Program-made: the position numbers and the translations under genes
Notes under the pieces: generated by a model
What the model was told of the DNA's origin: nothing
The model's input: only the letters and a program-made list of their open reading frames with translations
The model's database searches: none
Source of the DNA: an uncultured Enterobacterales bacterium
GTDB lineage: Bacteria; Myxococcota_A; UBA796; CAJQPC01
Assembly: GCA_964604165.1 (NCBI GenBank)
Contig: CAZRYF010000016.1
Coordinates: 5,229 to 69,228, forward strand
Direction: 5' to 3'
DNA: 64,000 nt
Shown here: piece after piece, positions 55,667 through 58,117 of the stretch
How positions within the stretch are numbered: position 1 is the stretch's first letter
How the letters are laid out: every line of letters starts with the position of its first letter

Positions 55667-58117
55667 ATGAGCACGATCTCGTTGTGTGTCATTGCCCGTG
55701 ACGAGGAACAACTTCTTCCTGGACTCCTGGCTTCGGTCGAGGGAGTCGTGGACGAGGTCATCGTCGTAGACACGGGAAGCTGCGATCGCACGGTGGAGCT
55801 GGCCCGGGCGCAAGGCGCGAGCGTCGTTTCCTTTGAGTGGATCAACGATTTTGCAGCCGCCCGAAACGAAGCCTTGTCCCATGCCACTTGCGAATACGTC
55901 CTGGTGCTGGATGCAGATGAGCGCCTGGCAAAAGGGGATGGCGCCATTCTCAAAGAGATTGTGGCGGCTGGTGATGCGGACCTTGTGCTCTTGGCGCTGT
56001 ACAACAGCAATTCTCTGGATGCCTCCCAAGACGAGATTCTCCAAGGGTCTGCCAGCATGGGCGAACCGATTCTCCTGCCGCGTCTGGTGCGTCGCACGGA
56101 GAACCTGCGCTGGGACGGTGCGGTGCACGAGACCATCGCGGTGGAGCTTTTGGATGGCATGCAGGTCGCGGCCTGTGCCGACGTGCGCATTCTCCATTTT
56201 GGTGATGTTCCGGAGATTCGCGAGGGCAAGAAGAAGGATGACCGGAACCTCGCGCTCCTGGAGGAGCGCTGCAAGGTCGAGGTCGGAAATCCGGTCATGG
56301 CAGCGCACCTGGCCCGAGACTACATCCGTCGCGGCCGCCTTGAGGATGCTTGGGATCGGGTGGAGATCTGTTGGTCCCACCTGGAACAGCACCGAGCCTC
56401 CGATGGTTTTCCACCCGCTGTGGTGGGTCTTGCGACCCTTCGCGCTCACCTGCTCTTGGCCCAGGGTCGCAATCGATGTGCCCTCGAGGCCGTGGAGACA
56501 GGGCAAGGCTGGGGCAACAACCACCCCAACCTGGACCTGATGGGAGGCGCCGCCTGTGAAATGATCGCCTTGGAAACAGGGGGCGCGGAAGGCGTCTCCT
56601 GGTTGGAACGATCGGCCGCGTCTTATGTGGCATGTCTGAAGCGCCACGGTGAGGTTTTCGCCGAGGAGCTTCTCCCGGGCGCTACCAGCTGGGCGGCCAG
56701 CACGCGCCTTGGAACCGTGCGTCTTCTGCAGGGGCGTTGTGAAGAGGCCCTGGATGCCTTTGAGACCAGCATGGTGCTCAAGGAAGATCACGTGGAAGCC
56801 CGTCTCGGATGCGCTGAGGCCCTGTTGGGCTGTGCCCAGCCGGAAGAGGCTTTGGCCGTCGTTGAGCCCTGTTTGCAGGAGAATCTTCCGGATTCCTGGG
56901 TCATTGCAGCCGCTGCATGTGACGTGTTGGGGCGCATTGACGAGCTGGTACTTCTGGCAGGACGAGGACGAGACCTGGCAGAAAACGGATTCATGGCGGT
57001 GCATCGGCGCAGCTGCTTGGAGCAGCTGGAGCTTGCCTGCTGCATCTACGGTGGCAGCCCGGTTCCCGGCGATGGCCCCGTGGGGCTCCTGGGGGCTGTC
57101 ATGTCGCGTCGACCGGAAGGCGCCAATCCCTGGGCTGGGCAGGCGCCGGATCCGGAGCTGGTGACCCGTGTGGCCTTGAACAGCATTCTCGGGGGCCACT
57201 CGGAATTGCTGGATCCCCTGTTTGAGGATCGCGCTGAAGATCTGCTTCCGGGCGTGTCTTCCATTTTGCAGGATGCGTTGTCCCAGCTGGGCGTGAACGT
57301 GGTGGACGATGGCGAACCCACGTACCTGTTCATTGGTGGCGCCGGTCGATCGGGTACGACCCTGGTGCGGGCCATGCTGGATGCGCATTCGGGGGTTTAC
57401 TGTGGCCCAGAGGTCAAGTTGGTCACTGGAATCTGCGAAATGCACAAGGTGTGGACCGAGGCCATGGGGGACAGTTTTGAGGCGTCGGGCGTTGGGTCCG
57501 CCCCTTTGGATGCAGGCGTTCGCAGCTTTGTGGATGCTGTGTTGCGGGAAGTGGGGGGAGATGCACGGTGCATTGCGGAAAAGACGCCCCACAACCTGTT
57601 GGGCATGGAGCTTCTTGGGCGCCTCTTTCCCAGGGCCCGCTTTCTCCATGTGGTGCGGGATGGGCGGGCTGTGGCAGCCTCATTGGTAAAGCAGCAGTGG
57701 GTCCACCCCGGCACGGGCGAGCTGGTTCCCTACTGTAGAGACCACGGTTCGGCGGCCCGCTATTGGGGGGAGATGATTACCGAGGTACGCACCCAGGCGT
57801 TGCAGGTCCAGGACCGGTACATGGAAGTGGTGTACGAGGAGTTGGTCACACAACCTGAGCAGGTCATGCGACAGGTGTTGGCCTTCGTGGGGCAACCCTG
57901 GGAGGATGCAGTGGTTCACCACCATGCGTCCGATCAGCGACTTTCCCCGACAGAGTCCTCCAGTGAGGCGGTCTCTCGGGCGGTGAATACCGATGCGGTG
58001 GACCGCTGGCGCAGGGAGCTGACCACGGAACAGGTGCAGGAGATCGAGTCCGCGGCTGGCGAGATTCTGAGCTGGCTCGGGTACACGACACCGGTGGACA
58101 TCCAGAGCGTTGGGTAG
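55667..58117 (+). CDS. Tri-domain enzyme: GT2 (SunS-like subgroup) + TPR + TPST-like sulfotransferase
   Basis: ATG at 55667 (GGAGG upstream). GT2 '[38 protein letters not shown]...[15 protein letters not shown]...LVLDADERL'. The middle ~330 aa are helical-repeat/TPR-like. The C-terminal 264 aa (57323-58114) read '[30 protein letters not shown]...[20 protein letters not shown]...[33 protein letters not shown]', collinear with animal tyrosylprotein sulfotransferase motifs. Confidence 0.8.
   Translation: [816 protein letters not shown]

Follow-up and report, generated by a model that had tools for sequence, protein, structure and literature searches.

The gene at positions 55667 to 58117 (forward strand) of the 64,000-nucleotide stretch analysed here, hereafter the window (contig CAZRYF010000016.1 of assembly GCA_964604165.1, positions 5,229 to 69,228), encodes in one polypeptide a family 2 glycosyltransferase (GT2), a tetratricopeptide repeat (TPR) scaffold and a homologue of animal protein-tyrosine sulfotransferase (TPST). 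The identities of the domains are clear, the catalytic residues of both catalytic domains are intact, the fusion is conserved, and the clade to which its sulfotransferase belongs is recurrently linked to sugar-handling enzymes. We tentatively favour, with somewhat less than even confidence, the reading that the protein would glycosylate and then sulfate one TPR-recruited acceptor, probably a protein, most simply by placing the sulfate on the transferred sugar. In such a mechanism the TPR superhelix would recruit a macromolecular acceptor, most likely a protein, and the GmaR/SunS-type GT-A domain would put a sugar on it; the TPST-type domain would then move sulfate from 3'-phosphoadenosine-5'-phosphosulfate (PAPS) to the same acceptor, the favoured target being either the sugar just added or a hydroxyl that glycosylation has made or brought into position. 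The two consecutive steps would yield a sulfated glyco-modification. That both activities act on one acceptor, that it is a protein, in which order the reactions run and which chemical group receives the sulfate are points that we infer. The gene and the parts of its product are as follows.

55667 to 58117, + strand: fusion gene for GT2, helical/TPR and TPST-like sulfotransferase domains (open reading frame, ribosome-binding site, domains, full-length homologues)
55667 to 56215, + strand: GT2 domain of GT-A fold, amino acids (aa) 1-183, GmaR/SunS/ThuS subgroup (PF00535, 1.6e-16; GmaR and SunS matches; Foldseek)
55910 to 55921, + strand: DxD-type metal/nucleotide-sugar motif D82-A83-D84-E85, within LDADE (aligned to GmaR and SunS; invariance)
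56216 to 57301, + strand: all-helical TPR or TPR-like scaffold, aa 184-545 (TPR_19, 2.8e-6; AlphaFold2; Foldseek)
57302 to 58117, + strand: TPST-like sulfotransferase domain, aa 546-816 (PF13469, 8.9e-32; TPST2, 3e-38; profile; Foldseek; neighbour-joining tree)
57335 to 57361, + strand: 5'-phosphosulfate-binding loop GGAGRSGTT, aa 557-565, including R561, the equivalent of TPST2 R78 (TPST2 alignment)
57656 to 57682, + strand: 3'-phosphate-binding motif RDGRAVAAS, aa 664-672 (aligned to RDGRASVHS of TPST2)

The fusion gene and its three domains

The open reading frame spans 55565-58117 on the forward strand, with the ATG at 55667 as the start codon used. A GGAGG ribosome-binding site is present at 55655-55659, the ATG lying 8 nt further 3', and all homologues of the protein begin at the equivalent methionine; the product is therefore 816 aa long. 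The GC content of the three codon positions (0.71, 0.45 and 0.71) is of coding type, in a window of 64% GC, and all four peptide strings quoted in an earlier note on this DNA were found verbatim in the translation. A test for an assembly artefact or a frameshift was negative: the reading frame is intact, a copy in another metagenome-assembled genome (MAG; L001) shares 92% identity and lies in a locus whose whole 14.8 kb shows synteny to the window, and more than 50 full-length homologues were found. The contigs that carry such homologues are in some cases long (1.28 Mb for the gene in L023; for P0043 the longest contig listed measures 2.87 Mb).

Pfam models matched the protein in three places, Glycos_transf_2 at aa 5-116 (1.6e-16), TPR_19 at aa 353-401 and Sulfotransfer_3 at aa 554-747 (8.9e-32). 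An AlphaFold2 model, computed with 53 homologues as input, was compact and confident (mean predicted local distance difference test (pLDDT) score 91.7, predicted template-modelling score 0.86) and laid the chain out as a GT-A domain (aa 1-180), 21 helices (aa 182-540) and an alpha/beta sulfotransferase domain (aa 552-805). Inspection of the translation and of the model revealed no signal peptide, transmembrane segment or hydrophobic segment, and the N-terminus is itself the first beta-strand of the GT-A domain. Because signal peptide and transmembrane segment are absent and both donors, nucleotide sugar and PAPS, are cytoplasmic, the protein was placed in the cytoplasm, and a soluble, cytoplasmic, bifunctional enzyme is the best explanation of its make-up. 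Judged from their residues, both catalytic domains look competent.

The N-terminal domain belongs, as first proposed, to the GT2 subgroup that contains SunS, although its best solved relative proved to be GmaR (22ao; 6e-21 to 5.4e-22 over aa 4-204), the match to SunS being weaker (1e-11 to 7e-13 over aa 3-258). Foldseek, run against the PDB, aligned the N-terminal part of the model to SunS (7msp) with a template-modelling score (TM-score) of 0.67 over 298 residues and to ThuS with one of 0.58. The LDADE motif aligns with IDADE of GmaR and IDADN of SunS, and D35, R66, D82, D84, E85, R139 and E155 are invariant in all 53 fusion sequences compared. The protein falls outside the SunS family as defined by the NCBIfam equivalog TIGR04195 (53.4 bits against a cutoff of 350), and weak NCBIfam matches were also obtained to polyprenyl-phosphate GT2s. 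The domain order is that of both relatives: as in SunS, a helical TPR-like domain comes after a GT-A domain that bears a DxD motif, and as in GmaR, TPRs come after an N-terminal GT2, here one homologous to that of GmaR. The proposed TPR linker between the two catalytic domains was likewise borne out, by the TPR_19 match and by the helices of the model, which are predicted at high pLDDT; Foldseek matched this region of about 360 aa to OGT and to CTPR repeats. The scaffold is present but variable in length among homologues of 599-1042 aa.

The similarity of the C-terminal domain to TPST is far beyond chance. It scored 111.5 bits against the Sulfotransfer_3 model PF13469 (cutoff 27), its 5'-phosphosulfate-binding and 3'-phosphate-binding motifs align to those of TPST2, and its matches among solved structures, human TPST2 (3e-38), TPST1 (5e-36) and tick TPST (9e-36), extend over aa 538-807, approximately the whole catalytic domain. 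The top match of a Foldseek search against the PDB was TPST1 (5wrj), with a TM-score of 0.84 (on the target), a root mean square deviation of 2.9 Å and 31% identity. The domain is closer to TPST than to other sulfotransferase families by TM-score (0.84 versus 0.62), by position in a neighbour-joining tree (see below) and by profile score: a profile built from 15 bacterial homologues of the domain matched the TPSTs best (1e-54 to 1e-56, 185-192 bits), followed by the CurM/olefin-synthase (OLS) sulfotransferases at 1e-21 (80 bits), with cytosolic SULTs at no more than 39 bits. The earlier claim of a full-length TPST homologue thus stood up to the model and structure searches that it had called for. 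With TPST2 residues numbered from the printed alignment of the 3ap1 chain, the putative catalytic tetrad R561/E582/K639/S765 is identical to the aligned R78/E99/K158/S285. A catalytic role of S285 is said to have been reported by Teramoto in 2013. For R78, E99 and K158 of TPST2 catalytic roles have been confirmed (PMC10951654). The type II membrane, lumenal arrangement of TPSTs is lacking, the domain being C-terminal in a soluble protein.

These properties also fit a close rival of sequential glycosylation and sulfation, in which the protein would carry out two chemically independent post-translational modifications, the glycosyltransferase O- or S-glycosylating Ser, Thr or Cys and the TPST-like domain O-sulfating Tyr of the same TPR-bound protein or peptide. 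We consider this possible but doubtful. It would account well for a domain that is collinear with TPST throughout, including the TPST-specific C-terminal element bearing S285, and that combines an intact tetrad and a TM-score of 0.84 with 31-37% identity to animal TPSTs; GmaR, SunS and ThuS, moreover, are protein or peptide glycosyltransferases. However, several positions of the TPST2 acceptor site are not conserved: P77 is replaced by Gly, F161 by His (in 50 of the 53 fusion sequences), R105 is lost, and the T198-A200 segment has given way to a conserved, family-specific W-x-D-P-x-T-G insert. These positions we take, in part after Teramoto's 2013 work, to be acceptor or peptide contacts. Since they differ, the acceptor specificity of the domain may differ from the peptidyl tyrosine of TPST.

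Distribution of the fusion and partners of its sulfotransferase clade

When 5.8 billion proteins were searched by word index, the three-domain architecture turned up in dozens of clusters of about 780-850 aa, and 52 further proteins aligned end to end with the window protein at 33-90% identity. The named full-length homologues come mostly from Myxococcota MAGs, and in a scan with each species represented by a single genome the gene was present in full length in L001-L007, L014 and L023. The MAG records L001, L002, L003, L005, L011 and L014 are titled 'uncultured Enterobacterales'; their GC content of about 64%, their MopE-motif proteins and the named homologues point to Myxococcota, and this taxonomy looks unreliable. 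An exhaustive phmmer search with the sulfotransferase domain against 1.84 billion representatives at 50% identity gave 149 clusters at E<=1e-30, 7,154 at E<=1e-10 and 29,415 at E<=1e-3. Among the best 150 clusters, a homologous GT2 lay N-terminal to the sulfotransferase in 23 (proteins of 599-1042 aa), a homologous TPR region preceded a single sulfotransferase domain in six and two such domains in one more, about 20 proteins carried 2-5 sulfotransferase domains in tandem, and 101 had a single sulfotransferase domain by the same test. The GT2-TPR-sulfotransferase architecture is a populated, uncharacterised family. Its component families are known and automated pipelines label such proteins 'sulfotransferase' (JGI names the full-length homologue P0041 'protein-tyrosine sulfotransferase'), but no description or characterisation of the GT2-TPR-TPST-like architecture was found in the literature. 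The earlier note had not known the architecture to be described, and literature searches indeed yielded nothing specific to it.

Within the family the two catalytic domains have fared differently. No glycosyltransferase residue is lost in any of the 53 fusion sequences. The sulfotransferase tetrad is complete in 42 of them, with R561 kept in 44; of the 3'-phosphate-binding motif, R664 and D665 never vary and S672 occurs in 52. In one subclade of eight proteins (P0047-P0054) the R, K and S of the tetrad have become D, T and I and the P-loop is degenerate (GGTWDAGVRT), while every glycosyltransferase catalytic residue is kept; by these substitutions the sulfotransferase of this subclade is presumably dead, a pseudo-sulfotransferase domain. 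The loss of the sulfotransferase in one subclade, and of the glycosyltransferase in none, is what would be expected of a dispensable tailoring step and suggests that sulfation would follow glycosylation. It could also be taken to mean that only the glycosyltransferase is enzymatic and that the TPST-like domain serves mainly for binding or regulation, for example in sensing PAPS or PAP or in binding a ligand, since the subclade retains the domain in inactivated form. GmaR offers a precedent, being a moonlighting GT2-TPR protein that is both a glycosyltransferase and a non-enzymatic anti-repressor (PMC9638930). The PAPS-binding and catalytic residues, however, are all kept in the window protein and in 42 of the 53 family members, which argues for selection on catalysis, and we regard a mainly binding or regulatory domain as very improbable for this protein.

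The earlier note had called bacterial TPST-type enzymes rare, which is wrong at the level of sequence, where such enzymes occur in many phyla and 149 clusters were found at E<=1e-30. Homologues with the sulfotransferase only were found in Myxococcota, Planctomycetota, Steroidobacteraceae, Solirubrobacterales, Actinomadura and Maricaulis (close homologues at 30-56% identity), and there are many standalone proteins of about 270 aa that share 35-56% identity with the window domain. Two TPST-like paralogues stand in tandem in Maricaulis (L036-L042, L045 and L053), among them M. parjimensis DSM 16078, a strain in culture that could lend itself to work on the TPST-like family. Solirubrobacterales loci (L044, L051, L058, L066, L073-L076, L079 and L080) have three to seven tandem paralogues each. 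P0241, P0262, P0284, P0304 and P0343, of either bacterial or eukaryotic origin, are giant proteins of 1298-2819 aa with three to five TPST-like sulfotransferase domains. The same list of matches contains animal TPSTs (lamprey, insects, springtail) at 31-37% identity. A phylogeny of the sulfotransferase domain, proposed as a check on the original assignment, was made by neighbour joining without bootstraps and rooted on the sulfotransferase of the neighbouring gene, an outgroup on a very long branch; in it the domain grouped with the TPSTs, well apart from the outgroup, and the fused clade with its standalone relatives was sister to a group in which the animal TPSTs are joined by a clade of approximately 300-aa proteins. 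This grouping also favours two independent modifications with tyrosine as the sulfate acceptor. The locus of P0200 (L090), which belongs to the 300-aa clade nearest to the animal TPSTs, has 13 genes in 21 kb, with long gaps. Because of this very low gene density the contig may be eukaryotic, and the 300-aa clade hence not bacterial.

The partners of the clade are repeatedly sugar-handling enzymes, of unrelated folds. In L011 the fusion occurs in split form, a TPR-sulfotransferase gene adjoining a separate GT2-TPR gene. The nearest standalone sulfotransferases (P0134, P0138 and P0137), about 49% identical to the window domain, each begin 4 nt before the stop of an upstream gene for a CgeB-like glycosyltransferase of GT-B fold (DUF3880 and PF13524), at the following positions.

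L084, 8235 to 10804: CgeB-like GT-B gene and TPST-like sulfotransferase gene, 4-nt overlap
L085, 8583 to 10786: the same module, 4-nt overlap
L087, 5448 to 7819: the same module, 4-nt overlap

The pair, whose overlap couples the two genes translationally, is kept in L087 despite flanks that differ from those of L084 and L085. The CgeB-like partner had no PDB or NCBIfam match, and a comparison of it with the fusion protein, made to look for homology between them, found none. Elsewhere the sulfotransferase is fused to a methyltransferase and a GT2-TPR (P0247), to a different type of GT2 (P0244) or to a polysaccharide pyruvyl transferase (P0266), and in P0254 it stands behind a long array of TPRs that gave a borderline match to GT41. 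A sulfotransferase-GSCFA architecture was also seen (P0263). The standalone sulfotransferase of L088 has, at 4 kb, a GT8, an ABC-2 transporter and a giant multi-glycosyltransferase protein with a homologous GT2 as neighbours, and the homologous GT2-TPR module occurs as well in multi-glycosyltransferase proteins of about 1200 aa. The contexts of more distant standalone sulfotransferases (P0168, P0200, P0231 and P0123) were uninformative. The common denominator of the clade's partners is sugar-adding or sugar-decorating enzymes, with glycosyltransferases of at least three unrelated types. Because the clade is joined so often to glycosyltransferases and to a sugar pyruvyl transferase, sulfation may come after glycosylation, as a tailoring step; if one protein received two independent modifications, this repeated joining would be left unexplained.

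Several of these partners could instead point to a glycan or glycolipid enzyme, in which the GT2 would extend a lipid-linked oligosaccharide or polysaccharide, the sulfotransferase would decorate or cap it, and the TPRs would provide for oligomerisation or spacing. The occurrence of the GT2-TPR module in the 1200-aa multi-glycosyltransferase proteins and beside the ABC-2 transporter and GT8 of L088 is consistent with this idea, as are the fusions of clade members to polysaccharide pyruvyl transferase and methyltransferases and the weak NCBIfam matches to polyprenyl-phosphate GT2s and to the Nod-factor sulfotransferase NoeE. The NoeE match, however, reached only 46.5 bits against a cutoff of 500 (NF052394) and aligned no more than the N-terminal half of the domain. 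The fusion protein also lacks a membrane-associated segment, the best solved homologues of both of its catalytic domains act on peptides, and no obvious polysaccharide cluster, transporter or flippase was seen at the window, L001-L007, L014, L023 or L081-L083, where the flanks are often short. We therefore think a glycan substrate of this kind unlikely.

Genomic neighbourhood and the nature of the acceptor

Gene names were assigned from Pfam domains for about 30 window genes, which take up most of the stretch from 19.6 to 64 kb. The window is a core chromosomal region with groEL, dnaK, dnaJ, lnt, a batA-D-like operon, surA, pdxA, hflX, hflK/C-like genes, proB and proA. The close neighbours of the fusion gene are hflX, two Band 7 genes, a lipoprotein-like gene, a TPR-sulfotransferase gene and genes with proB and proA domains, and the 6 kb to each side contain no gene for PAPS synthesis, no transporter or flagellar gene, and neither a polysaccharide cluster nor machinery for ribosomally synthesised and post-translationally modified peptides. 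Flagellar genes are also absent from the approximately 30 annotated window genes. Likewise, no RaxX-like precursor or RaxA/RaxB exporter was found within 6 kb on either side, and a glycocin cluster (precursor, peptidase-ABC exporter and thiol-disulfide oxidoreductases) is not among the neighbours of the gene. The two genes that flank it directly are the following.

54547 to 55632, + strand: upstream lipoprotein-like gene, ending 34 nt before the fusion gene (lipobox LLAC)
58110 to 59501, + strand: downstream gene for a 463-aa protein with TPRs and a second Sulfotransfer_3 domain, overlapping the stop of the fusion gene (PF13469, 1.6e-41)

The likely true start of the upstream gene is the M of MILFLLAC at 54586. 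Its product had no Pfam or NCBIfam match, and homologues precede the fusion gene only in L001, L003 and L083, the nearest subclade. With a single Tyr, which lies in a hydrophobic stretch, the predicted product makes a poor candidate for the substrate of a TPST-type enzyme, and it may be a partner or unrelated. This too counts against an independent tyrosine modification, as the gene is the sole conserved neighbour. The earlier note had seen no precursor-like reading frame nearby; on re-inspection, the junctions around the fusion gene (gaps of 34 nt and 95 nt and one 8-nt overlap) proved too short to leave room for a precursor peptide. Since no neighbour gene is conserved across the fusion family in the loci compared and the upstream gene is restricted to one subclade, a substrate encoded next door was excluded.

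The downstream sulfotransferase is distant from the fused one (about 28% identity; TPST match only about 1e-6), and its 3'-phosphate-binding-like motif reads VRSPMDTAFS, not RDGR. Direct adjacency of the two genes was seen in the window and L001 only; in Myxococcota (L084 and L085), and also in loci of Steroidobacteraceae/Gammaproteobacteria, a sulfotransferase of the same type is encoded at a distance of 4-8 kb from TPST-like genes, and a functional link to the fusion gene is uncertain. A cycle of sulfation and desulfation with neighbouring 'sulfatases' (L081 and L002) was rejected, these being lipoproteins of the alkaline-phosphatase superfamily that lack the C/S-x-P-x-R formylglycine motif.

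Sequential glycosylation and sulfation of a protein would agree with two further observations: for each catalytic domain, the nearest relatives of solved structure have proteins or peptides as substrates, and the gene sits among housekeeping genes and not in a polysaccharide cluster. Several points weigh against it. No substrate was identified for the fusion enzyme, no neighbour is conserved family-wide and no PAPS-synthesis genes were found among the annotated genes of the window. Those characterised enzymes to which the sulfotransferase domain is most closely related transfer sulfate to tyrosine and not to sugars. The subclade of eight lost its sulfotransferase residues in a single evolutionary event, and the linkage to glycosyltransferases is also compatible with two independent modifications of one target.

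Other features of the window were noted in passing. Proteins with the Cu-binding_MopE 'putative metal-binding' motif are encoded at 37865-38872 (- strand), where a Laminin_G_3 domain is also present, and at 62124-63806 (+ strand). A B12-binding radical SAM enzyme (40347-41975, + strand) follows a gene for a protein with HYDIN/ASH-type Ig-like domains (38867-40357), and the BatA/BatB/BatD-like operon (VWA, VWA-TPR and BatD domains) lies at 31373-35684 (+ strand).

Significance and comparison with known systems

Protein tyrosine sulfation is regarded as essentially a modification of the eukaryotic secretory pathway, with RaxST as the one bacterial exception; to our knowledge, RaxST is the only characterised bacterial tyrosine sulfotransferase, and we know of almost no sulfated protein glycans in bacteria. 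Against this background it is conceivable, though we would not count on it, that the family is the first bacterial case of a sulfated protein modification installed in the cytoplasm by a single enzyme, and that its clade is the evolutionary source of animal TPST. The modification could then be sulfotyrosine beside a glycan, as on animal ligands of the PSGL-1 type, or alternatively a sulfated O- or S-linked sugar, a modification not known to occur on bacterial proteins. The putative enzyme offers a soluble, single-polypeptide entry to testing protein or protein-glycan sulfation in bacteria, a possible tool for cytoplasmic sulfation and a data point on the bacterial ancestry of animal TPST; even an enzyme that decorates polysaccharide would be an unusual use of the TPST fold.

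With TPST1 and TPST2 (5wrj, 3ap1) and tick TPST (8w5z) the fused domain shares the fold, full collinearity, 30-37% identity, the motifs and the tetrad. TPST1 and TPST2, however, have an N-terminal transmembrane anchor and face the Golgi lumen, whereas the fusion protein is predicted to be cytoplasmic and carries the domain behind a GT2 and TPRs, and the acceptor residues differ as described above (P77 to G, F161 to H, R105 lost, T198-A200 replaced). SunS and ThuS (7msp, 7msk; TIGR04195) share with the fusion protein the GT-A plus helical TPR-like layout and the DTGS...NDF..ARN...DADE pattern; they are encoded with a glycocin precursor, a peptidase-ABC exporter and thiol-disulfide genes, which are not found near the fusion gene, and the fusion adds a sulfotransferase domain. 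GmaR (22ao) has the same order of GT2 and TPRs. It is a cytoplasmic GT2 and TPR flagellin O-GlcNAc transferase of Listeria monocytogenes and anti-repressor of MogR (PMC9638930). It differs in lacking a sulfotransferase domain and in coming from another phylum, and the window shows no flagellar or MogR context.

RaxST of Xanthomonas oryzae resembles the fused domain in being a sulfotransferase of bacterial cytoplasm that depends on PAPS. It is probably much less similar to TPST than the fused domain is; no RaxST entry appeared among the PDB and NCBIfam matches. RaxST is a standalone enzyme of a raxX-raxSTAB cluster with precursor peptide and exporter, neither of which is present at the fusion locus, and it has been modelled on the structure of TPST2 (PMC6637879). 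In the systems collected by Iyer et al. (2010), bacterial proteins related to tyrosine sulfotransferase are encoded in neighbourhoods for peptide modification, and the eukaryotic enzyme was considered to derive from such systems (PMC2938197). They pair the sulfotransferase with a beta-hydroxylase or phytanoyl-CoA hydroxylase where the fusion enzyme has a glycosyltransferase, and the GT2-TPR-sulfotransferase fusion is not among the systems described (PMC2938197). The bacterial sulfotransferases were predicted to sulfate hydroxyls that the partner dioxygenases introduce into protein substrates (PMC2938197), the same logic of installing a group and then sulfating it as in the sequential glycosylation and sulfation that we favour for the fusion enzyme.

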